NCBI GenBank assembly: GCA_050084515.1
Contig: CM114271.1
Coordinates: 28,768,001-28,832,000 of the forward strand
DNA: 64,000 nucleotides
DNA from: Blasia pusilla
Taxonomy: Eukaryota
Direction: 5' to 3'
The notes below the pieces were generated by a model. It worked only from the letters and a program-made list of their open reading frames with translations, had not been told where the DNA came from and did not search any database. Below, one piece after another: positions 20,279-63,700 of this stretch. Each line of letters begins with the position of its first letter. Position 1 is the stretch's first letter. The position numbers and the translations under genes were made by a program.

Positions 20279-20280
20279 AA

Positions 20281-20298
20281 TGGTGCTTCCACTGAGAG
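20281..20298 (+). other. Primer-binding site, probably tRNA-Thr(AGU)
   Basis: TGGTGCTTCCACTGAGAG lies 2 nt after the LTR. Its reverse complement resembles the 3' end of plant tRNA-Thr(AGU) as recalled from memory. Confidence 0.6.
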
Positions 20299-23200
20299 CT
20301 CTTTGAGGCGGTAGTTTGTGTTTGCAAGTTGGAGTCTTATCAAGATGACTACTTTTGGGAGTACTTCATCAATGGGAAGTGAGGGAGTTGAGGATCTTCT
20401 CCGAACTTTGACAACATTGTTGAGCCAACAAGGAGGAGTTCACATCGGAGAGCAAAGATCAACAAGGGCTCTCCAAGCGATTGTGAAGAAGTTGGGGAGA
20501 TTTGATGGAAGGAACATCACCAAGTATGTTCGAGAGTACGTCTGTGAGATGGAGGTAAACCGTGTATCCGAAGGTGATATGGTGTCAAGTTTTGAGTTAG
20601 CTGTAATACCAGAGATCCGTAGTCAAGTAAAGAAGTTGAGAGCAGAAAATCCAACCTCATGGGGAGGAGTACTGACGATTCTTTGAAAAGGAGAATTCTT
20701 CGATGATGATGTGGATCGGGTGACTAAGAGGAGTTTTCTAGAATGGAAAGAGCAACGTCCAGGGAAGGGAATGACTCCAAATGAGTTGTTTCGTGAGTTT
20801 GAGAAGCGGTTTTTTTAGCTTTCTCCTTCTGAAAGGGCTATCATGACCGTACGGATTATGTCGTAGAGTATGGTGTGCTGGTAGAGGCCATTCCTTATGT
20901 AGGACCGTAGTGGCTTGGTAGAGATGTGGTTCCATACATAGGGTTGGGGTTACTCACTTGGGGTGACTTTCCTAGTAGGGCCCGCTCTTGGTTGGAGGAT
21001 ATAAGGTGGCTTGCCCTCAAAAAACGATCAGTTCTTTGAGTTGAGCCTGTTGCGTTGGGAGTTAGCCTTGGTAGTGAGTAGAGCTCTTGGCTATGGTGTT
21101 TCCGCAAGCCGACCTGGATTCTCCCATCGTGGAGTGGGTTTGGCTCGATTGTATGTGATTGTAAACGTGTTTTATGACAAATGAGGTCTTTCACGGATTT
21201 CACTCAAAGAACCGGAGTAGATCGATAGTAGCTTCGATTGTAGATCAAGAGGGATCTGGTTAGGGTGATTGTGTACTCAGCCGTGGATGTTCGGGCTTGT
21301 TGCATATGTTGGAGGTGTGAATCAGGTGCGTGGTTGGTTGGGAAAGAAGCGCCTTGCTGAGAGCTTTCCAACGCGCTGTAGATCGCCGGATTTCGTCAAG
21401 GGAGTTGGAAGTTATCAAGCATTGAAGATTCTCGGTTCGTGTTCGGCGCTTTTCGATGTGGAGAGCTTGGAGTGCGGAAGTGTGTTGAAGTTCATCCAGA
21501 TCGGGTGAGAGGTTCCTGATGCTACTCGTATTGTAATCTCCTGTGAATCTATCTGCTCGAGTGTGTGGAGAGTTGCGGATTTCTACGTGCATGGAACTTG
21601 GCGGAAGCGCTGTCGGATTTGCGATTCTGGAGGTGTATGGACATCAAGTTTGTTTGATTCTTAGCTCGGAGTACAGAGCTCGGTTGTAGCTGATTTTTTG
21701 TGGAGAGATAGCTATGGTGGTCTATTGAATTCTGATCGAAACAGATTTGATTTCGGTCACGTATTTGTGAAGTAATTTCTGATCGAAATTTCGCAGACTA
21801 GCTCGAGGTCTGGCTATGGTGGACAGCGGATCGGAGGGGCTGGTTGGTTGGTGACTCGTTCATTTTTGGAGACGCCTATCCCATTGGGGGCACCCTGGTT
21901 GGACCTCTCTCCATAGCGAAGCATGGCGAAGCGTGGCGAACGGGGCATGTCTCGGCGTTTTGAGGCTTCGAGGCAACTCGTGGTAGCTCAAGCAGTGGGC
22001 GTGAGAGGCGGAGTAAGGAGCAAGGAGCAAGCAAGCAAGCTTGCTTGCTTGGGCGTGAGGCAATTTTTGCAGGATTTGGGATTTGAGTTTTGCATAACTA
22101 GTCACCCATCTTTGGGCTATTCTGCCTGGAGGACGCTTAACTGCTGAGTTCTTAACTATGCCAGTGTAGAGACTGTTGTAGCTCATTTGGTGCTGTTCGG
22201 AGATGTGTTAGGCGCTTTATGCATCTCAGGTTTTTGGTTGATGTACCTCTAGCGCATAGTACGGTGTAGCCTCTCCATGCAGGTGATATTTTCAGATGCT
22301 GCGAGTTCGACTAGTATGTCATCGACCCGCGGCGGAGTAGCTATTGCGTTAGAATTGTGTGGTGGGTTTTGTGGATTCAGAGGGCACCACGTTTGGTGGA
22401 TTGTGTTACCTTGATTTTCATTTGCGGTTGGAGGGTTGTCGTTGGACTTCAGAATCGGATCCCCTCCATCGTGCTTTTGCTTGCTTGCGCCCAATGTTAG
22501 GGTTGACGCTGATTTCAGAGTAGTGTTACTCTTGTGTGCTACTGATAGTGAGGCTGGAGTGATGACCAGTAGACCGTGGGAGGCTTCTTGTAGTGATGAG
22601 AGGTTAGATTGCCTACACCCATAGCTAGTAGAGCTACAATAGTAGAGCCACATCGCGTCACTTGGATAATTTGGTGGTGGTGCGGCATCGGCGTTGGTCA
22701 TCACTGTCGGGTGGTACGGTTGGGGACCGTGGTGCGGATAAAGTGGTGGTTTCACACGGAGTGGATTTAGGTATCGGTTCGACGGTTGATGAAGAGGAGG
22801 ACCAGGGTGTTCCAAACACCGAGTCTTCTACGTTGTTATCGAGTGTTGCAGCTCCATTGATTTGGGACATGGACGGTGGATATGGGGCCATGAAGGGCCC
22901 ACGACGATACTCAGGTGCAGTGGGCACCATTGAGTTGGAGGACTTCATGCAGGAGTTTGATACGTGGTGTGATATGCGGATGTTATGAACGCCACGTTGT
23001 TTACACCCTTCTTGGCTTGGAAGGGTTGTTTCAAAGACTTGGAAGGACCACCCATGGATGATTACCATGAGTTTAGGAAAGACCATGTTCTTTGAGATTG
23101 AGGCGTGAGACAATATTGGTCTCCAGGCTATGTGTCTATCACCCATGGTGGTATTGGTAGTAGTGCTCCTACTATGCCCGGCCCGGCCCGCGTTGAGTGG

Positions 23201-25509
23201 TGCAGTACGAGCCGGAGTGGGGGTACCAAAGTGGAGGTACTAGTGGGGGTACTAGTGGAGGTATTAATGCCCCACCATCGTTCAGCCCGATTTGCAGAGT
23301 TCTTCAAGAGGTTGAAGAAGAACTATCAAGGAGTGAAGACGGAGAAGTTGAGGAATCTTCAGGACTTTGAGCGAAAGGCGGTGAGAGTCTTCGTGAGGCA
23401 TACACGCGTATCGACGCTTGATTTCATTACCAGGGTGTGGCGAGGATCAGCGACCCGTTTTGGTATGGGATCTTGGACAGAGATTTGCGCCGTAGGGTGC
23501 GTGATGCTACTCTTATGAGTGATGATTCACCCACATTGACCCATGTGTTTGCTCTATCTCGAGAAGATTGAGCTTAACATGGTGAAGGAGAAAGTGGTGA
23601 CATCCGCATTCAAGAGGGGATACAACTACTACTTCTCGGGTTCAGCCGCCCACCTCACGATCTCGTAGTAGTGGTGGTGGTAGTAGTAGTGGGAGTCGTG
23701 GGGGGTACACGCGACCTCAATCAAGTCCTAGAGGGACATTTGTGCAGAGACCATTGCCTTCATTTGCTGCCCCGCAGCAAGGACAGTCATGTTGGACATG
23801 TGGAGGTGATCATGTTAGGAAGTTTTGTCCCCAAGAGGATGGGAGACGGACTTTGGAGGATGGGCCTCAGTCGGCCCCAACTCAGTGTGATCATTGCGGG
23901 AGACTAGGTCATCCTCGAGAGCGTTGCTTTGATCTCCATCCAGAGTTGAGATCAGGCCGTGGCCGTGGTGGAGTAGCTCCGAGAGGCCGAGGTGGTAGAG
24001 GTGGTAGGGGTGGTAGAGGTGGACCAGTGGTTGGAGAGCCTACGGTGGCTACCCCTACCACTACGACAGTCACTATGGTGCGGGATTGATCGATTGGAGC
24101 GAAGTTGGCTACTATGGTGGTATCCAAAGATAGATCGGTTCGGGAGCAGGGCTTCCACCTCTTATGGAGGAGATGATCTCTCTTATATGGCGAGTGCAAA
24201 GACAGTGAGGCATCGGTGCGATTTAGAGGAGCCACTCGAGCGTCGAGAGCCACGTGGTGCTCTTGTGGAGTTGGACGCCTGAGGGGTGAGGCCGGGAGGC
24301 GTGCTAGGCTTCCCAGTCATTCTTGTTGTCGAGGTGCTTAGGACTCCATCCATGGTTCCTCACGCAGCCTATTGAGCCGAGTGGGGATCGAGGCATCTAC
24401 ATCAGCGTGTAGTAGACACGGATGCAGATCAATGCAAAGATTGTGCGGATGGCAACTTCGGTGTTAGGATCCCCATTGTTTTCGGCCACGGAGTGATGGC
24501 TTTAGGAGTTGACTTAGCTCTGTATTTGATTAGCGCCACGTTGTGTGAACGGGGGTGTTATCTTTGCATGGTGTTGAGGTGGATGAGGGTGTTGCGGTGG
24601 AGCGACCCTCTATGTCGGGAGTAGCATTGAGTACCGGTGCTACTTGGCGAAAGCGTGGCGAAGATGGATGCATTACCAGCCCGGCCAGCCATTGATCGTG
24701 AGAGGCTTACACCTTGTGTATGTATGTTGGACAACCGAGTGGGATCTTCCGATTGGTAAGTCCTACAGGACAGGTGTATAGACCAGATAGAGTCTTGTTA
24801 GACTCTGGTGCCCAACCTTTGATGTTGGGAAAGGCGGCATGTATTGGTTTGGGTATTCGGAGGTCAGAGCTTGAGCCTTGCCCATTCCAGATTCAAACAT
24901 CACTTGGAGGAGCCAATGATAGGTCTCCATTCATGACACGAGAAAAGTTTTCTGTACAATTGAGACCAAATCATGCGACTGATAGCTCCCGGTTGGGAGT
25001 ATCTGCGGTAGTCACATCAGCCGAGTCGTATGATGTACTAGTTGGAGGAGCGATGATTGTACCGATGGGTTTTCAGATGGATTTCGGGTGAGACAGCGTC
25101 CCATAGACCAGGTTGGCAGTCCGAGGATGGACGTATGAGCCAAGTTCCTGTGAGATTTATTTCTGGGGCTCGACCAGGAGGGTCTTCCCCAACAGTGTTA
25201 GCATCTGTGGCTGGTTTTAGTGGAGTAGTCACTTGGCCAGGAGACTTTTTGGAGGGTAATGTTTCTGCTATGGATTCTCTGCGCATGAGGAGGTAGAGGA
25301 GGTCCCTACTTTTGCAGCGGTGGCATCCTCATCGTTGGATGTGCCACTTTGGAGTTCAGCGGTGCACTACGGCAGAGGTCGATCGCCTAGTGCGAGGAGG
25401 CTTGGTGTGAGGCTGTTATACCTCACGAGGAAGAGGAGGCCCCACGGCGGACTCCTACGCCTGGCTTGATTAGGTTATCCCCTTTGGATACTACACCCAT
25501 TGTATGGCA

Positions 25510-26460
25510 AGTATCCGCGGAGGGCATTTGTGTGTTAGATCTCTTTGGTGGGATTAGCACTGGTTTGGCGGCGATGTTGCAGGCGGTATTCGTGTGCGGA
25601 GATACGTGTATGTGGAGCGAGATGAGACGGCCGAGAGAGTCTCATCGACATATTGGTCGATTGATGCGGAGATATCTGAGTTGTTGCCGCCATCGGCTAT
25701 TCGTGGGTACCGGCGTGCTTTACCATCACACATTGCATTGTTGAGGCGCGCAGGACCTTGAGAGGTTGGTCCTGTGGATTTGGTGATTCTTTGGATGGCC
25801 ATGTCGAGGGGTCATACACGTGTTGCTCGTGGTGAGGGATTACATGACCCTAGGTCTCGATTGTTTTGGGAGATGTTACGGGTGTTACGACATCTTGAGT
25901 TCATCGAGCACGTTACTAGCTTACATTCTGGAGAATGTTCCATTGTTAGGTGACACTCGAACCGGATGATGGCGAGTGTTCATGAGGTGCGGTCTTGATT
26001 GACCAGCGGTGTTGTTGGATGCAACGCGAGTTGGCTCAGCGTGCACATCGTCCACGCTTGTGGTGGACAAACTTGTTGCCTAGGAGGTTCTCGTCAAGCA
26101 TATGATGCGGTCTGGCGGGATCCTCGCTTACAATGGATAGTATCTTGAATCTTGGCGACTTTCTCAAGTGGTGAGGGTTATTGATCGGTCACCCATGGCG
26201 GTGGTGAACCGTGTGGGCGACCTAGGATGGCACTACCCACATTTGTGAGTTTTCCGCGTCACATGCCTACGAGGAAGGTGGTCCGGGGGCTTGTATGGGA
26301 TTCTCATGTGCGGCAGTTGGTGGAGCCTAACGCTGATGAGAGAGAGCGTGCGATGGGATTTACTCTTGGCGTGGCGGTTGCTTCTATTTACGAGGCTTCA
26401 CGACGTCATGTGTTGGGTCGGCCATGGACTGGGAATTGTTTGACTTGGATTTTGAGTCTT
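25510..26460 (+). pseudogene. DNMT3-like C5-cytosine methyltransferase domain within pol
   Basis: Motif I VLDLFGGISTG; IV VDLVI..WPC.G (about 25775-25810); VI YILENVP (about 25922); VIII AHRPRLWWTNL (about 26043); IX ERERAMGF; X RRHVLG..MD. Confidence 0.85.
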
Positions 26461-29400
26461 GGTATGGCCCAAGCGTCGACTTTGGACTATGTCGTGGGTC
26501 TTCCACCCCTTGTAATGAGCTCGATGGCTAGGGGACGGTAGAGGCATCGGTGGGGCAAGGAGAGTAGTATTTTGCATCCTTGGAGTAAATGGGATGTAAT
26601 GGATGGGCATGTGGAGTTGGTTGCTCATGCTGGTGGAGGAGTTATTTGCTCAGATGATGGTGTAGCTAAGGGTGTATCATCTTGTGAGGGGATTGCGTAG
26701 CAGCCAATGGCATCGTCCTCTCCCTCTAGTGTGCCAATGGAGGAGACTTGGGAGCCATTACTTGGGCCCAAGCTTACGGGGGAGGTGAGAAACGACGCTG
26801 CCACGGTTCCTACGTGCTTATAGGAGTTGTTTTGCCTTTAGCATGAAAGAGTTGGGTTCTCTGGTTGGACCCGGTATACGGATTGATTTGGCTAGTGATA
26901 CGCCAATCTTCCGTCGTCCCTACCGATGTAGTGATATGGAGAGGACTTGATTGAGTAGGGCGTTGGATCTTTTGGAGGTGGATTAATGGAGTTGTTGCAT
27001 GGAGAGTATGCATCGCCCTTTGTCATGCTGCTAAAAAGGATATGCATGGCAACTACACGGATAGGCGGATGTGTGGAGATTACCGTCCTATCAATCGGCA
27101 AACCAAGGCGATAGGTATGCCATGCCTACACCGAGGAGATCTTTGATGTGGTGGGCGGCAAAGATTTTCAGTACTTTGGATCTTGGCGAATACCATCAAT
27201 TGCCGATTCGGAGAGTGACAAGGCCAAGACAACATTTTGGGGTGTCAACTCTCATGGCAAGGATTGTTTGTACCGGTGGAAATTCTTACCCTTTGGGTTG
27301 AAGAATGCACTGCCGAGTTTCAAAGAGTGATGGACGGGATCCTAGCGGGGTTGGATTTTGTTCGGTGTTACATTGATGATATCTTGGTGTTGAGAACACG
27401 GTGGAGGAGCATCGATACATTTGCAGATGGTGTTTGAGCGGTTGAAAGCTCATGGTCTACGTTGCATCCAGGAAAGTGTAAGTTCTTCCATGAGGATGTT
27501 GAGTACTTGGGTCATGTGATCTATCCGGTGGTTTGGGAGTTCAGCAAGCAAAGGTGGAGGCTATTGCACTTATTCGCGTCGATAGATGTGAGTAGAGTTC
27601 GAGCATTCATGGGATTGGCGAACTACTATCGGAGGTATGTGAAGGGATTTAGTGCTATGGCAAAGCCTTTGAACCAATTGCTGAAATCAGATCAAGAGTG
27701 GCACTGGGGAGATGATTAGGAGAGAGCTTTTTGGAGCTTAAGGCCAGTTGGTGGCGGCGCCTATCTTGAGGAGACCTATCGAGGGCGCCCATTTCGATTT
27801 AACCGATTGGAGTAGGTTGGGACTTGGAGCGGTGTTGACACAACATGATGATGAGCACATGGAGTTTGTGGTGGCCTATGCAAGTCGTTCGAATAATGCA
27901 AATGAGTCGCGCTATAGTTCATATGAGGGAGAGTGCTTGGCAAGAGTGTGGGTTGTGGCACACTTTAGGTGTTACTTGTTTGGCACACAATTTACCCTTG
28001 TTCATGATCACCGGCCCGCTCAAGTGGTTGATGGAGTCGGACAAGCTTACTGGGGAAGCTTGCACGGTGGGCTCTTATCTTACAGAGTATGACTTCCAGG
28101 TGGTACATAGACCTGGAGTTGCCAACCTTGATGCTGATGGGTTGAGTAGGAACTCATGTACTAGCCAAGAGGATACAACTAGGGCTAGATGGCATGGCGA
28201 GGTTGATGAGGAGATGGTGCCAGGTTGGCATGCATCCGCCTTTTTATGTTGGTTAGGGGTGGACTCTAGTATGGAGGACCACATGATATCTTATTCTAGT
28301 CGAGGGTAGATGGCACCTTCTCAGATCCTAAGGTTGGAGATGGTGGTACGGATCAGCTTGATATTCATGATGATGCGTTGGTGTTGGAGTTCCTACAGAC
28401 CAGTAGGGTGCTAGGCATAGTGAGTGCCAAGGAGCGAGACCGTGTTCTTCAACGTGCTAAGAGGTATCGATTGGAGGAAACACATATTCTCCGCGTGTGG
28501 GAGGATGGTAGAGTACGAGTAGTGCCACATTTGGCTCAGAGAGAGCGCATTGTGCGACATGCCCATGAGGAGTTGGGACATTTTGGGGTAAAGCGTACTT
28601 ATAGCTTACTCCTTGGTGAGTATTGGTGGCGTGGCATGCATACTCAGGTGCAGCAGTTGGTGTCACGTTGTATGGTTTGTGACCGGGTGAGGGCATCATT
28701 TAATGCCCCTACACCACAATTACACCCCTTGCCTATTATGGGGTTGGGTTACCGTTGGAGTGTGGACTTTGCGGGACGTTATCGTTGATTCATACAACAT
28801 CATCGATATGTGTTGGTGATGGTGGAGCACTTTTCCAAGTGGATTGAGTTGGTGGCATTACGGACAAGGCAAGTGAGGGAATGGCGTATCGTTTCGGATA
28901 GAGTGCTTAGTCATTTTGGTGCACCAGTGAAGTCTTGACCGACCAGGGTATAGAGTTTGAGGTGAGTTTGGTCTTGTGTGACAAGGCGTTGATTGATCAT
29001 CGGACCACGTCTCGAGATCATCCAGGCGGATGGTTTGGCTGGCGTGTGGTTGAGGCGGTGAAGAGGGCATTGCGCAAGTATGGCCTCTGAAGGGCATCTT
29101 GAGACAGGATATTCGGTTGCCATGGTTAGCCATGGGGTATAGGTTCGATCGCCAAGCATCCTTGGCTTCCTTCTCACCTTATTTTTCATTATACGGCCGA
29201 GATCCGGACTTGCCGGCAAGCAAAGCAATTGTCGGGAGTCTAGTGAGGTGGTGAACCTTGATGACCCAGAGATGTGGATGAGGGTGTGTTCTCGGCGGGC
29301 GGAGCTCTTTCGGAGAGTTATGCCATGACCTTTGAGAATCTTGCCATTGCTCAACATAGGGATACGTTGCGGTATGCAACCATTCGGGTGGAGGTTATCG

Positions 29401-29646
29401 ACCATCGATTCAGTAGGTTCCATGTGGGGGACTATGTCTATTTTAGCAGATTGCCCGACAACGTTGGATGTGGCCAGCCGCACTATTTTACGAAAGTGCG
29501 TGAGGTGTTAGCTTCTAGAGTTCTCATGTTGGAGGGTCGTGATGGAGTTGTTTGGAAGGACCATGTGCGTAATTGTGCGCCATGTCATCTTCCAAATGTG
29601 GATGGTCTTATTGACCCAAGCTTAGCCATGATACGTGCTAGCTTGA

Positions 29647-29781
29647 GGTGCATGTTGTGTGGGTGCTTGTAATGGTATGTTGGTGTGTGATCGGTGTTCT
29701 AGGGGTTGGCACATGATGTGTTTGACTCACGTTTGGATGTTGTTCCTCTTTGGAAGGTGGGTTTGTCCTCGATGTACTTAG
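29647..29781 (+). pseudogene. PHD finger at the integrase C-terminus
   Basis: CMLCG...MLVCDRCSRGWHMMCL...WVCPRC* (C4HC3) across frameshifts. Confidence 0.8.
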
Positions 29782-32700
29782 AGAGGTAGATGACTTGATC
29801 TTTGCATGATATGGATTACAGAGATGTGCGACTAACGATGGCGCAACCTAGCACCCGGGATTCGGGCACCCAAGAAGGTGTATAGCATGTAGTAGATGTA
29901 TAGGGCTACTTGGGGGAGTTAGAGGACCTAACCTTGATTAGGGGGGGTTGTGGTACACTTGCGTTTGTGGATACTCGTCTATGTTATGTATGTATGTGCG
30001 TATGGTATGTCGGCGATGTATGTTGTATGGCGATGAGGATTCGTGACGACAAGCTTGTCATGACCATACGGATTATGTCGTAGAGTATGGTGTCTTTGGT
30101 AGAGGCCATTCCTTGTGTAGGACCGTAGTGGCTTGGTAGAGATGTGGTTCCATACATAGGGTTGGGGTTACTCACTTGGGGTGACTTTCCTAGTAGGGCC
30201 CGCTCTTAGGTTGAGGATATAAGGTGGCTTGCCCTCAAAGAAACGATCAGTTCTTTGAGTTTAGCCTGCTATGCGTTGGGAGTTAGCCTTGGTAGTGAGT
30301 AGAGCTCTTGGCTATGGTGTTTCCCGCAAGCTTCGACCTGGATTCTCCCATCGTGGAGTGGGTTTGGCTCGTTTGTATGTGATTGTAAACGTGTTTTATG
30401 ATAGTAAGTCTTTCACGGATTTCAGTTGTGGTACACTTGCGTTTGTGGATACTCTCGTCTATGTTATGTATGTATGTGCATATGGTATGTCAGTGATGTA
30501 TGTTGTATGACGATGTGGATTCGCATGACAGGGCAACTCTAGACTTGAGGAAAACCGAGTTATTCCTTGAGGCGGCAGATGAGAATTTGGAGGACAAGCT
30601 TTTCATAATGTTGGCGGACAAGAATGAAGAAGGAGATGTCAGCACTAATTGGAAGAAAGTGGAAGAAGTTGTTGCTATCCTCACAAAGCAAAGTCGAAGT
30701 AGAGGTAGAACCACAATATTTAAGTCGGAGGTACCAATTTCAAATCCATTGCCTAAGCCCATGCCAGCAAAGCTTGAAGATTCTACCATTGATGAGTTGG
30801 TGAAAGGTTTGAGAGAGTTGAGAGTAGAAATGGCTGAGCTTAAACTTGATAGGAATCCTAGTGTTGGTGCTCCTTCAATAAGTAAGAACTTTGTGAGAAG
30901 ATGTATATGGTGTGATAGTGTTGAGCATCAACGTCGAGAATATGAGGAATTTTCAGAAGCTCTTAGAAATGGAATAGTAAACTTCAAAGATGGGAAGATT
31001 CATTCAACGCAGACTGGTATGCCGTTGAATACCAACTTTGGTAGAGGAGGTATGAAAGGCTTAGTGAGAAGTCAAGTAGGAGTTGCCACTACGACATTAG
31101 ATTCTTATACCTTTTCAGTAAAAATAGAAGCGCCTATTGTATCTGTAGCTAAAAGTGAATCATTACAATTTCCTCGAGAAGTGATGATACAAGGGGCAGA
31201 GACTATCCGTCATCTGACTGGATGGGATGATCCAGTGGAAGTTGGGTGTGTTAAAGCATACCTAGCACAAGAGAAACATGTGAGTTGGCAAGATGCTAGT
31301 GTGGAGGAGAAGAGGAGACGCGACAATGATGGTGCTGATTTTGAGGAAGATGCAAGAAGAGCGAGGACTGTAAGAAGGAAAGGGCAACCAGAGGCGCAAC
31401 CGTCAAGAGAAGAAGGGCCTTCTACATCTGAATTTATGATGGATTCTCAAATGAAAGAAGGTGGAATGAAGGAGAACGAATTGAGGTCTCCTCAGAAGAC
31501 CAAGGGTAAGACTCCTACATACAAGTTTGCGATCGATATCGAGACAAGCACCTAATTTAAAGGAGATTCTTGAGGAGAGGATTTTGGATGCGAAAATAGA
31601 GTTTTCTTTGAGGGAAGTCTTGGGCATAGCCAAACGTGACTTTCATGAGTTGATCATAGATGTGATCAAAAGGAAGAGGCAGATGACTACAGATATGGTG
31701 ATGGTGAGAGCTTTGGATACTGACATCACAGAAGAAGAAGATGAAGAGCTTTGCCAAGTGTTTGGACAAAACCTTGACTTACGCGGAAAAGAGGCGAGAG
31801 TAGGAGAAGCCTTGAGAGAACAAGGTGAAGACAGGCATAATGGTGGACACTATTCTCGATCATATTGGGCGCGTGCAACGACGGAGGCTAGAGTTCGACT
31901 TGGCTCTCTTTAAGAATCAGTTTTGGCTCTCGTTGATCATGGTTCAGAGATCAACATCATGTCGCGAAGTGTGTACGACAAAGGGATATGGCCAATTGAT
32001 ACAGGGCATGGATGGGTACTACGAGCGACTAACAACCAAAAAGGTGAACTCTATGGTGCTTGTCCATCCGTCAAAACTCGTATCGGAGATGTGTTGATTG
32101 AGCAAAATTTCTTTGTTCAGAATAGAGCTGCTTATCCTATGATTCTTGGGCAACCTTACATCACAGCATCTAGAATGGAGACCAAAGTCATGGATGATGG
32201 GTCTCATTATGCCCGTATTAGAAGTCAGGATGGAACAAGATCAGTTCAATTCCCTTCTTTGTCATTTGAGTAGGTCATGAAAGGAATAGAGAGAAGTTGA
32301 GAGATGGTCCTATGAAGGTAGAGAAAGAGTTTTCGGATTTTTAGTTAGCATTCCTATAGAGCGGGAATATGGGGGTGCAGAGAAAAGAAAGAGTCTTCCG
32401 CTAGTAGAGGGGGAAGAATCATATATGTTTAGGTGTGGGTTTTCTCAATGTTTTTCTTCGTGGTCTAGTAGATTCCAAATGATGAAAGAAATGAATGAAA
32501 AGAAAAGACGTTTTATGAAAAAAAAAGGAGGGTTTGTTAAAATGTGAGGGTGTTCTATTAGATGAAGAGTTCATTAGTGGGATGTATGAAGAAGAGGGTT
32601 TTGGAGATAGTCTTGAAGAGGTGTTTACCCAGATGAACATCGATTCGCTGGATACAAGTGTGATTACAATTCACTCGCGTGAGTTGCATGAAGAGATATC

Positions 32701-33182
32701 AAGGTTCATGGAAGGAGAAAATGAAAATGAATATATGGAGAAGGAAGCGGATGGGCATGGGTTTGAGTCTGACGAACATCCCATGGAGGCACAAGTGCAC
32801 ACAAAATACAAGACAGTGGCCCGGAAGGTGAAACCAATGGCTACTCAACTACCAGAGGGTTGTGGGAGACAAGTAGAACGTGCATCAATGGAGCCAAGTC
32901 TGCGGGATATCAAGAAGATAGGACATAAGTTCACAGAAGAGATGCTAGATCGTCTGCAAATCGGAGGGGGTGAGTTTCTCACAGAAATTGAAAGAAAATG
33001 CTTTCGGGAGATGTTAAGGAGACATGGTAAGGCTTTCTCTTTTACAACACAAGAAATTGGTTGTGTAGACACGAGTGTGGTGGCACCGATGGTAATTTTC
33101 ACAGTTCCACATGTGCCTTGGGATTTGAAACCCATACCAGTACCATGAGCTATGATTCCCAAGCTGATTGAGTTATTGAGTT

Positions 33183-39085: not shown

Positions 39086-41632
39086 TGTGGAAAACTGCTA
39101 AACAAGCATGATTGGTGGAAAACGGCTCTCACACACACACACCACCATGGAGAATGAAATTTGCAATGAGAGAATGAGTGGAGGCTGGTCCTCTTCTCAA
39201 TTATATAGGGTATGTACAAGCAACCATAACCTTACCCTTAACCATAGTCTCGAGTTAGATTAACAGTGATTAACTAACCCTAGTTAAGATAATCATACTT
39301 AAGTAACTAACCAAGATTAAACTTCCCTACTTCGTGTGAGTACCAAATGTAGCAGTTTAGGTGTCTCATGAGCTTGACTGTAACTCAACCTTCAATACTT
39401 CCCCTCGAGCTCATATCGATATCTCTAACGCCTAAATCCTTTCTAAAGATCTCAAACTTATCTCTAGACAATGCCTTTGTAAAGATGTCAGCAATTTGCT
39501 GATCTGTACCTATATACACAAGATCAATTTCTCCTGCAAGCACTTTCTCTCTGATAAAATAATAGTGCACCTCAACATGCTTTGTACGAGCATGAAACAC
39601 AAGGTTATTAGCAAGTTTGATGCTACTAATATTGTCTGCATATATTACACTAGGTCCTAAGTTACTAACACCAATCTCAACAAGTAATCGATGAAGCCAC
39701 ACCGCCTCACATGCTGTATTGGTTGCTCCTCTGTACAGAGCCTCTGTTGAAGATAAAGCAATTATAGCTTGCTTCTTTGAAGCCCAACTTATAGCTGCGC
39801 TTCCCAAAGTAAATGAATAACCAGACGTGGAGTGTTGATCAGACACGCTTCCTGCCCAATCATCATCTGAGAATCCCTGTAATTGAAAACTCGGAGAAGG
39901 TTCAAATTGAAGCCCAAATTGAATAGAGAATTTCACATACCGCATAATCCTCCTCACAGCATAAAGGTGAGGTTTTTGAGGTGCTTGCATAAACTGGCTC
40001 ACTAGGCCAACAACATAGCTCAAATCTGGTCTGGTTATAGTTAGATAGATCAAACTTCCAACCATGCGCCTGTACATATAAGAATCTGCAAGCAGCTCTC
40101 CTTTATCCACTCTTAGCTTCACGCTTTGGTCCAACGATGTAGAGATTGGCTTACAAGCCGTCATACCATATTTTGAAAGAAAATGAAGAGCATATTGTCG
40201 TTGTAGTAACCACATGCTCTCTCTAACCTTGACAAAATCAATACCAAGGAAGTACTTGAGTTCTCCCAAGTCCTTCATATCAAATTCTGCTTATAACTTA
40301 AGCTTGACTTCTTGTACCATTTCTTCAGTACTCCCAGTAATCAAGAGATCGTCAACATACAACACAATGAGAAGTGTATGATCTTGTCCTCTCAAGACAT
40401 ATAATGAGGAGTCAGAATCACATACCCTAAAATCCAACTCTTGTAGGACATATGTAATCTTGCCATACCAAGCTCTTAGAGCTTGTTTGAGCCTGTATAG
40501 AGCTTTCTTCAACCTGCATACGCGAAATGGAAATTTGGGATGCTCATATCCATGTGGTTGAGTCATATATACCTCCTCGTATAGATCTCCATTCAAGAAG
40601 GCATTCTTGACGTCCATGTAATGTAATCTCCACTTCTTACTTACTACAACTACAACCACTGTTCTCGTAGTCGCCATCTTTCCAACAGGGCTAAATGTTT
40701 CCTCATACCATATTGTTGTGCATAGCCCTTAGCCACCAATCTCGCTTTGTATCTGTTAATTGTACCATCTTGATTGCGCTTGATTTTGTAAACCCATTTG
40801 CAACCAATAGCTTCCTTACCGGAAGGTATATCAACCAGGTCCCATGTTTGTTGATGTCTTAATGCAGCAAGCTCTTCCTCCATAGCTTCAATCCATGTGG
40901 TGACTTGGTCTTCAAAGTGGAATTTGGCGGAACGATATTGGGACTTGAAACCGATGGCACTCCGCGAGCATCTACAAAAGCAATTTCTCAACATTATTTA
41001 GAGCACCAAAATCGAGTTTTATCAACTTCATGTTAATCCTATGCTTGTATATTGTGAACAAGGATACATACTCGCGGGGATCTCCACGTTCTTACGTCAT
41101 ATTATCGCACGACATAGAACTGGGTCTCATAGGCTAGGAATTGAGGAAGGATGATGATTTAATATTGATAGAAGTGAACGAATTTGTAGGTTATGTGACA
41201 GAGAAAATATTGAGGATGAAGAGCATGTGTTTGTTACATGTCCAAGGTACGAAGAGATTAGACTAGCTCATAAAATAGATGTGGAGAATTTCTATTCTTT
41301 ACTACAGCTAGTGCCTTATGATTTAGGTAGTTATATTAGAGATGTAATTATTCATCGCTCAAGTGCTCTAGGCAGTAGCTAGGAAAGGGTCTTTAGGATC
41401 TTTTTCAAGGTGAGTGAATGAATGACTTGTAATGTATTTTTCAGCCTTTTAACCCTTTGGGTCCCACGGGCTTGACCTATTTACCATTTACCATTCGGCT
41501 TTACTCGCAGCTTCTTCAAAACAACTCGGCTGCTGCTCTTGAAGGGTAGTCATCATATATGCATGATGTGTCGCAAGGAAACCATCATTTATGAATCTAT
41601 GAATTGGATGCGTAACTCTACTTGATCTACGA
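39086..41632 (-). mobile_element. Ty1/copia retrotransposon, 3' half (RT-RNase H, PPT, 3' LTR 39397->39086)
   Basis: WVYKIK...YKARLVAKGY, MDVKNAFLNG, LYVDDLL, RTKHVEVHY; PPT GAGGGGAAG adjacent to the LTR; same family as 60731-63745. Confidence 0.9.
40897..41494 (+). mobile_element. 5'-truncated LINE (RTEX/L2-like C-terminal CCHC finger) inserted in Copia, with a TTTACCA-repeat tail
   Basis: IARHRTGSHRLGIEEG...RICRLCDRENIEDEEHVFVTCPRYEEIR; tail TATTTACCATTTACCATT. The second Copia copy is contiguous across this site (62421-62440). Confidence 0.75.
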
Positions 41633-42367
41633 TGTCGTGCGCATACATATCGCTACACAACATACATCCCTGGTCATATCTACACCATACAACATCGATC
41701 TTCCCCACACACGGGTCGATCCACACATGTACAAAAATAAACTCATACATATACATGGAGATCACACAACAAAAATAAAGAGTAGTAAAAACGACACACC
41801 TGGCCTAAAACTCCTCTCCTCAATCTACATCGGCATATCGAGCCATGTCCACCCTGTGCTATCAAGGAATCCGAACGCTAGCACCCTAGTCCGATCTCAC
41901 ACACATACAAGGGAGGTGCTCCAACGGCCCAACATGAGATTATATAGGGTTAGGAAGAGCCAAAAGGCTCTTCCCCTAAAAATAGCCCTCCCCTTGGTAA
42001 CCTGCGCACACAGGTTACCAGGGGCGGGTGACCTGGTCAACAAGTCACCCGGCTGTAAAAGACCTCAACATAAAAGTTGTCAGAAACAACGTTCTTGACA
42101 CAATGGACCTATCCTCAACCTCATCCGACACTGTGGGACAAAGTTACACTCAAGATAGTCCGCTGGCTCCTACGCCCTATAAACGATAGATCTCGGCCTA
42201 TCGGCTACTCAGATGTGACAGTTGTCGTGCGCATACATATCGCTACATAACATACATCGCTGGTCACATCTACACCACACAACACCGATCTTCCCCACAC
42301 AAGGGTCGATCCACACATGTACAAAAATCAACTCATACATATACATGGAGATCACACCGCCCCTAGC
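41633..42367 (-). mobile_element. 3' end of a second Ty3-like element with PPT-B-A-B repeats
   Basis: Direct repeat 41633-41766 / 42223-42356. Minus strand reads TAGGGGCGG, B1 ending CGACA, AC, TGTCA starting A, then B2 ending CGACA. The B 3' end resembles B of 29949-30051. Confidence 0.7.
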
Positions 42368-42526
42368 GGGCGGTTGGATCCCCAACCAGGCAAAATATCA
42401 CATCTCTCTGACATGACCTACTCCCTTCCCCGATCACGATGGCGTCATTCTTTCTGTCTGTAATTCTGTAGGTACTACGGAGAGGCCTGAGGTTCGTGAA
42501 TATTGGATCGCGGGGACACCTTGTAG

Positions 42527-43580
42527 GCTAGCTAGGGTTGAATAATTATTATACGGTGCTCGGATACTATTCCGCGGAATTTCCGCCTACGTGGCAGGGA
42601 CTTGGGATCGGAGCTCACATGAGACATGGATGGACGTCGTTACGGCATGAGAGAGATAAATAAATAAATAAATATATATATAGAAAAAGGATGGGGACCC
42701 ATTCTTTTTTCTATATAAGGTAAAAGAAAGACCTCAAGAGGTCATAATCCGCCCCGTGAGAAAGAAGGGGGTCTTCCTCCTAACGACCTGAATCCCCTCT
42801 AACATCAGAGACAATATCAGTAATACCTAGAGAATTATGACTACTATTAAATGGGTTTCTAGCATTGGCATCTCCAACCGCCTAAGCCCCCCGCAGAAGC
42901 CCATTTGCTTGGGTGCGCTGCAAAGCTATGGAGACCCGTTGTCTATAATAAAGTATCGTAATGGCTAAGGACAATCCATTTCTCGATTGGAGATGATGGG
43001 CGTAATCCGTAAGGAACGAGTCAAACTTCTCCCCCATCGCCCTGTACATCTCAATGACCAGGGGATAAATCTATGTCCGTCATGAAGTCGACTATAAATG
43101 TGGGTCTTCTTAACCGCCGCCGCCGCCACTCCTTGTAGCAATCTCCCTTGTGCTACCACTTGGGCTCGCACCGCCTCCCGCGTAGGATCTGTCACTACAA
43201 CATCCGCTACCACCACCTTAGACTCCCTCGTCATGTAGAGATCAGCACGGATAAGGGAATCCTGCATGGAGTAATGCCTCTCTCTTTGTACATGGAATTC
43301 ACTCTCCCGCATTGCATCGTGAGTGGCTATCCTGAGAACATAATATCCCGCATTGCATGTGAATGGCTATCCAAGTGGGTTTGCATTTCCAGACTTGAAT
43401 AGTTTATAATTTTTCGGAGCTAGCTAGGGTTGAATAATTATTAAACGGTGCTCCGATACTATTCCGCGGAATTTCCGCCTACGTGGCAGGGACTTGGGAT
43501 CGAAGCTCACTTGAGACATGGATGGACGTCGTTATGGCCCCTGAGAACGGAGCAAGTGGGTTTGCGTTTCCAGAGTTGAA
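42527..43580 (+). repeat. About 165-bp tandem duplication; first copy (42527-42650 + 43372-43399) split by a LINE insertion, second copy 43418-43580
   Basis: GCTAGCTAGGGTTGAATAATT...GGACGTCGTTA(C/T)GGC and CAAGTGGGTTTGC.TTTCCAGA.TTGAA each occur twice. Confidence 0.75.
42653..43371 (-). mobile_element. 3' fragment of a CRE-like non-LTR retrotransposon (restriction-like endonuclease)
   Basis: RADLYM...VADVVVTDP...KKTHIY...FIP (PD-(D/E)xK), then YRQRVSIALQRTQA; (TATT)n tail at about 42656-42675. Confidence 0.75.
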
Positions 43581-58459: not shown

Positions 58460-60730
58460 TGGAGTTGGATTCTCCATCTACTCGCTTATCTCGTTTTACA
58501 CGCCCTCTTACAGCCGTAACCTCTCCCCCTGGTTCACCTCCTCATTGTAGATCTCCCCATTTTCCTCCAGACTAATATACCCATTACACTCGCTACATTT
58601 CTTCTGGATTCTCCTCTTCTCCCTTCTTTGCATTGTCCTATTGAGCCTAATCTTGATCCATTATTACGAAATCCTTCTACTTTGCCATCCCTACATATCT
58701 CATCTATGCCCTTGCTTTCAACTCCCATCTATTCTACCCAAATCTCCCCTCTTCCTCCTCCTCCTTCCCCAACCTCCTTACCCCCTCATCGTCGATCATC
58801 ACCACCTCTTGCACCTCCCACCTCCTCTCCTTGTAACCCTTCTACTTCTCCATTTGTACCAAAGTTTCGTTGCATACCTTGTGGTAAGGAGTTTGCTCCT
58901 AATGGGATCAAAAGACATCAACGCTACTGTCGATCCATGTATGGGCCTTCAATCCCTAACCCGATACCACCTCCTACTGCACTCCCCACAACAACTCCTT
59001 GGACCTGGTTAAGCCAAATGGATCTCCTTCACTCTTTCCATCCAGGTCTTCCTCGTCCTAGACTCTACACTTGCATTCCTATTGCTCTTCGTCCCATCAC
59101 CGAACCCGCTTTGCTTTTCCCATTAGAAAGGTTAGCGCGTGATCCCACAGATATCAAAGCTTGGTATCTCTTATTACTCTTCCCACAATGGGTTTTAGTC
59201 CTTCCTCCAAGGGGTGGTGCAACGGGTCATCGTGAAACCTCCACACGTATTCAACGCTTTATGTCTGGGGATTGGGAGAATCTTCAGAATGAGCATGTAC
59301 TTCGAGCCGAGGCCTTAGCTGCGACTCATCCCACTTAACATGTCAATCATGGAAGGCCTTCAATACAACAACGCCTTCGATGAAGTCTACTTTTGGGGCA
59401 GGTTGGTGAGTTTTCACGTGCAACTTGAGCATTGGGTCCTCTTTCTCCGGCGGTTCCAAGTGCGGGAATAGTGGCTCTCTTGGAAGCTCTTCATCCTTCT
59501 TCAAGTGGCGATGCTCCACCTTTTGTGGAAGACTATACAATGGACCCTCACTTGGAGCTTGACTTGGAGGTTTTCACAAGGGATTTTCTACAAACTCCTC
59601 GCTTATCAGCAAGCAGGCTATCAAGGATGGTTTTTTAGCATCTCTGCGAATGCTTTATCCCAACAGATTCAGCAAGTGGCTTTGTCTCTCTATATAAGGT
59701 GTGTGCACATATGGCGGTAGGTCGTCTTCCATTCTCTATATCTAGGCTCTTAAGGGCTTGTCGTTTGTTGGTTTTGGATAAGCCTCCTTCAAGTGTGTGC
59801 CCTTTGGCTATTCGAGAGGTTTTATATCGCTTGGTTAGTCGATCCGTATGCTTGCAATTTTTTCCTCACTTTAGTGCCCACTTATTTCCTCATCAATTTG
59901 GAGTGGCAACTCTTGAAGGTTGTGAGGCTGTGATGCATGGGATTTGCTCCACTCTTGATATTCATCCAGATTGGGTAGCAATTCAAGTCGATATGGTTGA
60001 CGCATTCAATTCACTTTCTCGTGTGGCCATCTTTGAGGAGTTATGTTGTGCAGGAAGACAACTCGCGAGCCTCATTCAATTTGTTTCCTCCTTCTATGCC
60101 TATGATACACCCTTTATCTATTTCCATCATGCTACTTCTGGGGAATATAGTATTCTACAATGGGCTTGTGGCACACGTCAAGGTGATCCCATGGGTGGCC
60201 TACTCTTTGCCATTGCCCATTTTCATGCCCTTCGAGCATCAGCGCAAGCATTTCCATCTTGTCTTTTCCCTTCTATTGCTGATGACACTCACATTATAGG
60301 TCCTCCTTCTAAAGTGGTTCTTGCTTATATCGATTTCGTGGAGCAACTCTCTTTCTTAAACCTTAAAGTCCAACCTAGTGAATGTGGAGTATGGTCTCCT
60401 TCATGCCTTCCCTCCATATTCATCCCACCTACTTATGATTTTCCCATCTATATTGAAGGGGTTAGAGTTCTTGGGGTCCCAATTGGCTTCATTGACTATG
60501 TCTCAAAGTTCTTGGATGAGGCCCTTGTGAAAGACGCGGAATGGCTTTATTTGTTACCTCATCTGGGGGGTCCCCTAGTGGCTTATGGGATTCTCTCCCA
60601 ATGTTTTCTACGACGTCCTTCCTACCTTCTTCGCACTTGTCCTCCCACTTCAAGGTTCTTACATCGGTTGGCCTCTTTTGACGCTTCTATCTTGGTAACT
60701 TTTGGTCAACTTCTTGGCCCGAATACCTTT
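58460..60730 (+). mobile_element. CRE-like non-LTR retrotransposon (N-terminal Zn finger + RT), disrupted and cut by a Copia insertion
   Basis: CIPCGKEFAPNGIKRHQRYC; QFGVA..GCEA; DAFNSLSR; GTRQGDPMGGLLFA; SIADDTHIIG; no APE domain visible upstream. Confidence 0.75.
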
Positions 60731-63700
60731 TATGGAAAACTGCTAAAGAAGCATAACTGGTGGGAAACGACTCTCACACTCACACACCACTAGGGAGAAC
60801 AAAATTTGCAATGAGAGAATGAGTGGAGGCTAGTCCCCTTCTCAATTATATAAGGTATATACAAACAACCCTAACCCTAATCCTAACCTTAACCATAGTC
60901 TCGAGTTAGACGAATTATGATTAACTAACCCTATTTAAGATAATCGTGCTTAGCTGACTAACCAAAATTAAGCTTTCCTAGTTAGTGTGAGTACCAAATG
61001 TAGCAGTTCAGGTGTCTCATGAGCTTGATTGTAACTCAATCTTCAATACTCCTCCTCAAGCTCATATCGATATCTCTAACGCCTAATCATTTTAAAACAT
61101 CTCAAACTTATCTCTAGACAATGCCTTTATAAAGATGTCAGCAATTTGTTGATTTGTACCTATATACACAAGATCAATTTCTCCTACAAGCACTTTCTCT
61201 CTGATAAAATGATAGTGCACCTCAATATGCTTTGTATGAGCATGAAACACAGGGTTATTAGCAATCTTGATGCTACTAATATTATCTGCATATATTACAC
61301 TAGGTCCTAAGTTACTAATACCAATCTCAACAAGTAATTGATGAAGCCACACCGCCTCACATGTTGCATTGGTTGCTCCTCTGTACTCAGCCTCTGTTGA
61401 AGATAAAGCAACTATAGGTTGCTTCTTTGAAGCCCAACTTATACCTACGCTTGCCAAAGTAAATGAATAACAAGATGTGGAGTTTCAATCACATACGCTT
61501 CTTGCCCCATCATCATCTGTGAATCTCTGTAATTGAAAACTCAGAGAAGGTTCAAAGAGAAGCCCAAATTGAATAGAGAATTTCATATACCGCATAATCC
61601 TCCTCATCAAGGTGAGGTTTTCGAGGTGCTTGCATAAAATGGCTCACTAGGCCAACAACATAGCTCAAATCTTGTCTGGTTATAGTTAGATAGATCAAAC
61701 TTCCAACCATGCTCATGTACATATCAGAATCTGCAAGCAACTCTCCTTCATCCACTCTTAGCTTCACACTGGTCCAACGGTGTAGAGATTTGCTTACAAG
61801 CCGTCATACCATGTTTTGAAAGCATTTGAAGAGCATATTGTCGTTGTAGTAACCACATGCTATCTCCAACCTTGATAAACTCTATACCAAGGAAGTACTT
61901 GAGTTCTCCCAAGTCCTTTATATCAAATTCTGCTTGTAACTTAAGCTTGATTTGTTGTACCATTTCTTCAGTACTCCTAGTAATCATGAGATCGTCAACA
62001 TACAACGTAATGAGAACCGTATGATCTTGTCCTCTCAAGACATATAACAAGGAGTCAGAATCACATACCCTAAAACCTAATTCTTGTAGGATATATGTAA
62101 TCTTGTCATACCAAGCTCTTGGAGCTTGTTTAAGCTCGTATAGAGCTTTCTTCAACCTGCATACGCAAAATGGAAACTTGGGATGCTCATATCCAGATGG
62201 TTGAGTCATATATACCTCCTCGTATAGATCTCCATTCAAGAAGACATTCTTGACGTCCATGTGATGTAATCTCCACTTCTTACTTATTACAACTGCATCC
62301 ATTGTTCTTGTAGTCGCCATCTTTGCAACAGGTCTAAATGTTTCCTCATAATCAATGCCATATTGTCATGCATAGCCCTTAGCCATCAATCTCACTTTGT
62401 ATTTGTTAATTGTACCATCTTCAATCCATTCGACTTTACTTGCAGCTTCTTCAAAACAGTTCGACTCCTGTTCTTGAAGGGTAGTCATCATGTATGTATG
62501 ATGTGTTGCAAGGAAACTTTCATTTATGAATCTATGAACTGGATGTGTAACTCGATCTACAAAGTTTTTGTTGAGAGGTAGATGCTTCTGACACCTGACT
62601 CGAGCTCTAACTAGTGTCAACAGACTCAATACGTACTCTTCCCATCCATGGACTCACAGATATAACTGATGAATCTAGGATTTCTCTGAATCCTGCACTA
62701 GTACTTGGGGAAGTTGAAGGCAATGTCTGTTGATTTACAGTCATATTCTCCCCCTCAATAGACGAGTTTAGAGTTGGAATAGACTCAGATGGAGCATACC
62801 ATGACTTTAGCTCATCAAAGACAACATCCTGACTAATAATAAGTTTCCTAGAGGATGGAATGTAGCACTTATACCCCTTAGTTCCATCAACATAGCCAAT
62901 GAAGATACATCTTTCAAACTTGGGGTCTAATTTATGACGTCTCTCAGAAGGAACATGAGCATAACAAATACAACCAAATACTTTCAAGAAGGAAAAATGA
63001 GGTTTACTTCATGTGAAGACTTCAAATGGAGTTTTATCATGAACTTTTGCTGTTGGAGTTCGGTTGATTAAGAAGACTTCATATGCTACAGCCTCTGCCC
63101 AATACACCTTAGGCATGTTCTTCTCATTCAGTATAGCTCGTGCCGCTTCAGCAATATGTCGATTCTTCCTCTCAGCCCCTCCATTTTGTTGTGGAGTATA
63201 ACGGCAAGTCACTTGACGTTGGATGCCATTCTAATGTAAATAGTCATCAAACTCTGTTGAAAGATACTCTCCTCCTCCTTCACTACACAATTTCAGAATG
63301 TGTTCTCATGTCTGCTTCTCTACTAGAACTCTGAATGTTTGGAACACTGAGAATATCTCTTACTTAGATTTCTCAAAGTATACCCATATATACCTAGAGA
63401 AGTCATCAATAAATGAAACAAAGTATTGGCAACCACTAAGGCTATGTTGTGATGCTGTCCACATATCACTGTGGATCAACTCCAATATCCTGGATGCTCT
63501 TCTATCTTGCTTTGGGAAAGGAAATCTAGCTTGTTTTCCAAATTGGAAAGCATGACATATCTCTAATGTAGCAGGGATCGCTCATTTAGGCAGTCTTATT
63601 ACTATATTAGATGATGAAAGACTCTATAATCTTTGAAGATTCATATGTCCAATTCTTTTATGTCACACATTTAGATTTGTGACTTGTTGGCCGGTTTGAC

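Follow-up and report, generated by a model that had tools for sequence, protein, structure and literature searches.

A split terminal repeat at the locus

The 64,000-nt window analysed here (Blasia pusilla, assembly GCA_050084515.1, contig CM114271.1, positions 28,768,001 to 28,832,000) carries on its minus strand the 3' remnant of a high-copy Ty3/gypsy retrotransposon family (family 2), in which a polypurine tract (PPT) is followed by a repeat segment B, a segment A and a second copy of B. The remnant begins with the final ~60 nt of the family-2 internal region (42365–42425), recognised by its homology to 29 other loci; in the 1510 nt compared upstream of the PPT this homology ends about 70 nt from it. 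Because the window copy is broken off there, it is on its own without a 5' A, a primer binding site (PBS), pol and a matching target site duplication (TSD). The PPT, identified from the sequence and the family comparison, is just a short G-run, AGGGGCG (42358–42364; AGGGGGGCG in the family), and adjoins B1 (42223–42357), the TGTA-rich first part of what would be the long terminal repeat (LTR) of reverse transcription.

Self-comparison of the window aligned B1 with B2 (41633–41767) over 135 nt at 94.8% identity (E 1e-56), and both copies have CGACA as their 3' end. The start of B was then refined by 3 nt to GTTGTG, right after the G-run, which places B2 at 41633–41770 and A2 at 41771–42220, B1 lacking the 3 nt at its start. 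Between B1 and A2, which starts with TGTCA at 42220, lies a 2-nt spacer, AC (42221–42222), and the resulting palindrome CGACA-NN-TGTCA (42216–42227), two attachment (att) sites set end to end, is a putative integrase cut site; elsewhere in family 2 its spacer is GC, AC or GT. A2 is the promoter-bearing part of the LTR, with a TATA-like box, CTATATAA, at 41940–41947, and the window copy has lost ~30 nt between this box and the self-primer described below. The A/B junction TTTTT/GTTGT (41766–41775) may represent joined ends of complementary DNA (cDNA), and the CGACA end of B2 meets a Ty1/copia pol remnant (41491–41632, also minus strand), which was the insertion target: 41491–41618 matches 62426–62553 at 89%, and copia-like reverse transcriptase (RT) open reading frames (ORFs) are present. 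The PPT-B-A-B end structure, which a sequence-only reading of this DNA had described, is therefore real in all its parts, from the two CGACA ends to the host junction after B2.

Full-length copies across the genome

Searching the 390-Mb genome with the window remnant returned 43 matches among 40 scored candidates of 5355, and the B-A-B order was present in 30/30 loci retrieved, these having been selected by that query itself. The structure far exceeds chance expectation: the exact 28-mer across the A/B junction occurs 404 times (0 for its reversed control), and at least 336 exact PPT-B ends of family 2 were counted. When 20 of the first 30 loci were walked 11 kb upstream, 16 showed an intact A followed directly by ACATGAGAAAGATG, 8.8–11.0 kb from the end of B2, while an intact A1 was not in range for the other 4. 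Moreover, among 30 loci picked by their 5' end, A was followed directly by the PBS in all and preceded by B in none. Full family-2 copies, about 9–11 kb long, thus read TSD-A-PBS-(C5 DNA methyltransferase, RT, RNase H, DDE integrase, PHD)-PPT-B-att-A-B-TSD. An exact 4-bp TSD flanks 11/16 long copies, and none of the 16 matches at 3, 5 or 6 bp. At these TSDs the element begins with exactly TGTCA and finishes with exactly CGACA, which are the halves of the internal palindrome.

In the internal region, ORF fragments match, in order, RVT_1, RT_RNaseH, Integrase_H2C2 and rve, and the D,D,E motifs of the integrase were located. The C5 DNA methylase domain (PF00145, E 1.5e-8) is accompanied in one copy by FGG, GWPCQ and ENV motifs; the protease is visible only as an LLDSGA motif, and in two copies a PHD finger occupies the C-terminal place of the integrase. 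One copy has 29 ORFs of at least 80 aa, none of which matched a tyrosine recombinase or a chromodomain. The domain order (protease, RT, RNase H, integrase), the TG...CA termini with 4-bp TSDs, and the predicted PBS and PPT are those of Ty3/gypsy elements, except that two complete colinear end LTRs are missing: the 5' repeat is A alone, and the 3' end is B-A-B or B. The sequence-only reading had pointed to an A-only 5' repeat, a TSD, a putatively self-priming PBS and pol as features to look for in full-length members, and all four were recovered. The A...B-A-B repeat order is also that of split-repeat DIRS elements, and a DIRS-order element could be integrated by a tyrosine recombinase supplied in cis or in trans. 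Such an element would, however, hardly carry an rve integrase, random 4-bp TSDs and TG/CA ends, and with no recombinase match in those 29 ORFs and an RT that groups with Gypsy proteins we regard this explanation as extremely improbable.

Family 1 and the wider lineage

A second family (family 1) is represented on the plus strand of the same window by a copy flanked by the TSD GGGC (left copy 20835–20838). Its A1 (20839–21202) has TATAAG at 21000 and a self-primer at 21029; the PBS starts at 21203, the first position of an internal region (21203–29939) with decayed gag, protease, DNA methyltransferase, RT, RNase H, integrase and PHD; and the 3' end (29940–30534) comprises the PPT (29940–29946), B1 (29947–30051), a spacer AGCT, A2 (30056–30424), B2 (30425–30530) and the right TSD. 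This element breaks another Gypsy-like gag-pol (19800–20838 and 30531–33150, plus strand), whose frame rejoins across the GGGC duplication. Elsewhere, exact TSDs were found in 4/5 matched pairs of family-1 ends in addition to the window copy, and in 20/20 family-1 loci A is followed directly by the PBS with no B-att before A1. One family-1 5' locus with a B-like match upstream proved to hold an inverted fragment ~150 nt away.

Over 3037 nt of pol the two families are 71% identical at the nucleotide level, whereas in the repeats just the last ~40 nt of B are alike. Since pol and the end of B are shared, the layout is inherited and not independent in origin, and the proposal that the minus-strand copy is an independent second example has to be withdrawn. 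The accompanying proposal, that the split layout is a property of the lineage and not a one-off rearrangement, is borne out by its recurrence in family 1, in the family-2 loci and in metagenome relatives. Of 80 metagenome loci, 35 had long flanks and were self-compared; 16 of these, belonging to 13 distinct elements, have B1 and B2 after pol, and 7 of the 16 also have an upstream A1. Their internal site is again GACA-NN-TGTC, the version GACA-GC-TGTC included. Three other metagenome loci resemble copies that end at B, with TSD-like flanks, an appearance that short-read collapse could mimic.

A tree of RT and RNase H (FastTree, 119 sequences, rooted on one animal Gypsy, 2 of 120 hits omitted as short, REXdb references absent) placed the element with two Marchantia proteins (support 0.96), within a clade of 78/119 sequences (support 1.0) that takes in Closterium, Klebsormidium and Pleodorina proteins. 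The spacing from the second D to the E of the integrase is 34 residues in 54/54 readable clade members (23 were unreadable) vs 35 residues in 16/17 readable sequences outside the clade. The nearest named relatives are Marchantia polymorpha proteins with 70% and 61% identity. These two proteins (P0003 and P0006), annotated as hypothetical, carry C5 methylase, RT and RNase H domains, and this content indicates that methyltransferase-bearing Gypsy elements occur in a land plant.

Putative priming signals and the bounds of the repeat unit

Intact copies of A contain TATAAG, then 23 nt, then CATCTTTCTCATGT, which is the exact complement of the 14 nt following A1. While this complement is perfect over 14 nt, none of 2000 random internal 20-mers exceeds 10 nt, and the primer-PBS helix is present in both the minimum free energy and the centroid folds. 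Family 1 has a different self-primer sequence at the identical 23-nt spacing from its TATA box, and two metagenome relatives have 11- and 16-nt complements ~24 nt after TATAAAA. The complement and the TATA spacing fit a transcript whose 5' end would pair with the PBS and act as self-primer. In both families A also contains, between the TATA box and the self-primer, a PBS-like copy (e.g., 21006–21041) that forms a short inverted repeat with the self-primer. An apparent loss of the primer hairpin specific to A2 (5/21 A2 vs 0/21 A1) was attributed to biased sampling and set aside, the query itself having that deletion.

In all families compared a G-run directly precedes B, which starts with GTT in families 1 and 2 and with ATA in the metagenome family, not with TG; likewise, family-2 A ends in TTTTT and not in CA. 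The A/B join coincides with the start of the PBS in 5' copies and with the end of the PPT. Since B starts where the PPT ends and A stops at the PBS, B-spacer-A is what PPT and PBS enclose, and this unit can end in letters other than TG and CA. The TG/CA pair that forms the element ends sits inside this unit, as the palindrome GACA-GC-TGTC.

Insertion forms

Insertions of family 2 come in three common forms. Thirteen of 30 loci picked by their PPT-B1 end stop at B (short form, A...B without a terminal repeat); the start of A was found upstream in 11 of the 13, and all 11 have an exact 4-bp TSD. Among the 336 exact PPT-B ends, 197 run on into NN-TGTCA, and the remaining 139 set an upper bound for short forms; about 40% of family-2 3' ends are of the short kind. 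On one contig, the first 30 exact junctions comprised 21 long forms, 7 solo A/B copies and 2 rearranged loci, the solo copies having an exact TSD in 5/7 and one with a single mismatch in 2/7. Three of the seven (L137, L146 and L151) have the same TSD, ACCT, at different sites, possibly through target preference or by chance. That B-A-B is just one of three common products had been overlooked by the sequence-only reading. Family 1 is poorer in short forms (27 long and 3 short among 30 3' ends, in a sample that may lean towards long forms), and the difference from 13/30 is significant (p = 0.007).

Pattern matches in the genome gave att-A followed by the A/B junction 162 times vs att-A followed by the PBS 3 times. 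All 3 of the latter are 3' ends that keep the PBS and 20–130 nt of 5' internal DNA and then run into B, which they meet, as read by eye, at 3–5-nt microhomologies. Three matches to junction-B-att-A are tandem B-A-B-A-B expansions. These two sets were inspected as candidates for the mirror permutation A/B-att-A-PBS...B, and none is one.

Conventional LTRs in full-length members, the finding that had been named as contradicting the split layout, were seen in 0/165 pattern matches. A conventional retrotransposon whose LTR is A-B, with an incidental extra B and decayed 5' LTRs, would account for the TG...CA termini of A-B and for solo copies with TSDs at 7/30 junction loci, and an assembly artefact would suit the signs of uncorrected errors inside repeats. 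Both versions are nonetheless barely credible: the A-only 5' ends of 30/30 family-2 and 20/20 family-1 loci already refute a conventional LTR, the layout is present in 13 distinct metagenome elements, and contigs of one public run (X1), which may be the assembly's own sample, join the end of A to the start of B.

Proposed mechanism

Taken together, we consider it probable that family 2 is a Ty3/gypsy retrotransposon which primes itself, whose LTR is permuted and whose integrase site is internal. The proposal starts from the observed anatomy, TSDs and allele sharing (below), and supposes RNA ends, cleavage and joining as follows. Transcription would begin at the primer that lies 23 nt downstream of the TATA box of A1, and the leading 14 nt of the RNA would pair with the PBS; ordinary reverse transcription would then yield the linear cDNA B-att-A...B-att-A, with the PPT and PBS boundaries, not att, at its two ends. 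Integrase would cut the internal palindrome after CA on both strands, giving an A-start and a B-end. A cut at the left att, together with joining of the raw cDNA ends, either within a 2-LTR circle or through repair by the host once the cDNA is inserted, would produce the long form A...B-att-A/B; a 1-LTR circle, cutting at both att sites or annealing of B1 with B2 would produce the repeat-less short form; and subsequent A1/A2 recombination would leave the solo A/B. The A/B join would represent two cDNA ends that meet again with every cycle. As a second A for first-strand transfer is retained in the long form alone, this form would be the one that replicates. Several steps have counterparts in published systems: in vitro, the integrase of foamy virus cleaves after CA at a palindromic LTR-LTR junction (PMC1180852), cDNA ends of Tf1 are described as retaining PBS and PPT remnants (PMC11042837), and 1-LTR circles are reported to dominate in Drosophila elements (bioRxiv 2022.09.25.509424).

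Alternatively, only the long form might integrate, by some end-processing route, with short and solo forms as later recombinants and the palindrome as a passive template that is never cut. The tandem B-A-B-A-B expansions (3 matches), solo copies with TSDs as expected from A1/A2 recombination, and the unequal short fractions of the two families all suit this explanation. It provides, however, no route to a left end at TGTCA, where there is no primer site and plus-strand priming would lie 138 nt upstream at the PPT; besides, short forms are not older than long ones (a flat comparison, p = 0.82, in a low-power test), and deletions, up to 139 of 336 ends, far outnumber the 3 expansions. We therefore judge it unlikely.

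Variation at the joins and points against the mechanism

Sharing of minor alleles within 21 long copies was compared with 5000 permutations. A1 and A2 of the same element shared 72 minor alleles upstream of the primer (19 expected) and 22 downstream (6 expected), B1 and B2 shared 17 (6 expected), and none of the 5000 permutations reached these counts. Even in its first 40 nt, B shows an excess of shared derived alleles (3 vs 0.3 expected, p = 0.001), and no fixed differences between B1 and B2 were found. In an unbiased set of long copies, length variants occurred at 4/15 joins vs 0/30 A1/PBS boundaries (p = 0.009), two further long copies that were interrupted being left uncounted, and some joins keep PBS or PPT remnants. 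The shared alleles fit homogenisation of the repeats in each cycle, and the variable and remnant-bearing joins fit a join made anew, both as the permuted-LTR reading would have it. One junction variant is common to L006 and L012 and another to L013 and L083, pairs whose members are among each other's nearer neighbours and not clearly sisters.

Indels at the internal att of family 1, which had suggested hypermutation of this site (20/27 vs 0 at the B2 end), were rejected as a signal, other windows across B1 and A2 reaching up to 15/27 and the whole of B2 being clean; in family 2 the internal att has indels in just 5/62. Across the family-1 3' ends L165–L193, indels are common in B1 and A2 and nearly absent from B2, a pattern that suggests assembly errors left uncorrected where unique flanks are distant.

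These data bear on a rival that avoids end joining altogether. PAT, Ngaro and TOC1 are split-direct-repeat elements of DIRS order, and family 2 might regenerate its ends as PAT or Ngaro do while using an integrase: RNA would reach B2, template switches would copy the A/B join and a second att, and the precursor's extra B-att, always on the right, would be trimmed by integrase. Such a templated join would explain why the mirror permutation is absent and why most joins are identical (404 exact copies), its repeat order is that of split-repeat DIRS elements, and the TGTA-rich B suggests that transcripts may end in B2. Against it, a minus strand primed at the PBS and jumping to A2 would skip the join, B1 and B2 have no fixed differences and share derived alleles even in the first 40 nt, and some joins carry PBS or PPT remnants and microhomology; moreover, cleavage at the internal att would still be required. 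It explains the asymmetry better, and the homogenised B and remnant-bearing joins worse, than end joining does, and we regard it as a possible though rather doubtful alternative.

Several observations weigh against the permuted-LTR mechanism with end joining. The mirror permutation, expected from random cutting of 2-LTR circles, was found in 0/165 matches, and the model needs an extra bias for its absence: the left att might be made double-stranded well ahead of the right att, or the mirror permutation might collapse to the short form via the 480-bp A repeat. The flat age comparison of short and long copies counts here as well, and the three tandem expansions imply that B1 and B2 recombine in inserted copies too, leaving integration as just one possible origin of short forms. 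Taken whole, the 5' fold is unremarkable (z -1.23). Within the last 60 columns of A, allele sharing falls short of significance (4 vs 2.5, p = 0.20), divergences of A and B are uncorrelated across elements (rho -0.03), and gene conversion or polishing could add to the sharing between B1 and B2. Without the one homopolymer +T the excess of length variants weakens to p = 0.03, and the 10/15 identical joins of the unbiased set would also fit an RNA-templated join. Finally, the titles of papers cited by PMC1180852 argue, for murine leukaemia virus, against internal att sites and circle junctions as efficient substrates.

Other features of the window

Two related Ty1/copia copies (39088–41618 and 60733–62553) are 90% identical, and the former, which reaches into the host flank of the family-2 remnant, has ~720 nt extra (40771–41491) in pol. 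On the minus strand, at 42527–43538, an insert of ~770 nt with an AT-rich tail at its end is flanked by two 120-nt direct repeats (96%), which could be an unusually long target duplication; its decayed frame resembles what we take to be the C-terminal endonuclease region of CRE-type non-LTR elements. On the plus strand, an RT-like ORF (59639–60793; GTRQGDP and IADD motifs) preceded by a zinc-finger ORF (58520–59338) probably belongs, we presume, to another CRE-type non-LTR element. Between 892 and 38572 the palindromic motif TGCAACCCGTCGGAWTCCGACGGGTTGCA is dispersed in dozens of copies, partly as 64–67-nt tandem arrays, and lies inside large direct and inverted repeats; it could be a DNA transposon or Helitron-like family.

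Comparison with known systems

The layout is already on record. KnitGypsy-Dnmt3 of Klebsormidium nitens is described, in the legends of Figures 1e and 4c, as having DIRS-like repeats A-coding-B-A-B with Gypsy domains (de Mendoza et al., 2018; PMC5890265), and family 2 is best placed as a new member of that lineage. Both combine with these repeats a Gypsy pol and a C5 methyltransferase, Dnmt3-like in KnitGypsy-Dnmt3 and putatively so in family 2. Two K. nitens proteins of our tree (P0020 and P0054) fall inside the 78-sequence clade, although they are not necessarily the published sequences. TSDs, a PBS, an att site, short or solo forms and a mechanism are absent from the text of that paper, which likewise does not mention the PHD finger found here at the C-terminus; its supplements have no match for KnitGypsy or TSD. 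Gypsy elements with a methyltransferase have been reported from charophyte algae; according to one review, land plants such as tracheophytes lack them (PMC6338049), yet the closest named relatives with this domain are here the Marchantia proteins.

No literature explaining the layout was found in the sources consulted, which were mostly open-access text without figures, Repbase or bioRxiv supplements, so a prior description is possible. Within that range, elements of this kind with an internal att, self-priming or repeat-less products are not described in the text of PMC6317226, PMC3350952, PMC9940879, PMC6338049, PMC12344493 and bioRxiv 2026.05.21.726589; the mechanism is probably new. The layout alone had appeared in print a single time, in a legend that left it unexplained. 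With the anatomy given here, an old question of retrovirology, taken up below, becomes directly testable, with a defined 12-bp site as substrate and predicted products. On balance, we lean towards a widespread green-lineage Gypsy clade (PHD, often a C5 methyltransferase, DD34E) that shifted att from the cDNA ends to mid-LTR, making its integrase a site-specific double-strand cutter of a palindrome and allowing circular or end-damaged cDNAs to integrate, with ~40% of insertions lacking a terminal repeat. Tools demanding two LTRs, such as the LTR-FINDER survey behind REXdb, would miss or mis-bound such elements, and about 40% of the clade's insertions would, if this is true, be invisible to LTR finders.

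Among other Gypsy elements, REM1 of Chlamydomonas also bears a PHD finger. Gypsy-7a_cRei is another green-lineage Gypsy with a PHD finger from Chlamydomonas, and its legend mentions "LTR subparts" (PMC9940879). Tf1/Sushi and Tcn1 resemble family 2 in a self-priming PBS directly after the 5' repeat and in PBS and PPT remnants at cDNA ends (PMC6317226, PMC11042837). In these elements both LTRs are full, att lies at the ends of the cDNA and a chromodomain is usual (Neumann et al., 2019; PMC6317226), in contrast to the internal att, the PHD finger, the absence of a chromodomain match and the 34-residue integrase spacing of family 2.

Split-direct-repeat DIRS elements such as SymbioDIRS-Dnmt3 (PMC5890265) have the order A...B-A-B and an internal copy of the end-to-end junction, but they use a tyrosine recombinase, whereas family 2 has a DDE integrase, a PPT, a PBS and 4-bp TSDs. 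The closest parallel to the putative cut site is the retroviral 2-LTR circle junction, a palindromic CA-N-TG whose cleavage after CA yields ends that carry 2-nt 5' overhangs and are ready for integration (Delelis et al., 2005; PMC1180852). The retroviral palindrome forms only when cDNA ends are ligated, as a side route, whereas that of family 2 is encoded in the LTR and is apparently the sole source of element ends. This raises the question of whether a DDE integrase can routinely use an internal palindromic att-att junction, with circles as true integration precursors; circular and end-damaged cDNAs, normally dead ends, would then serve as integration substrates.
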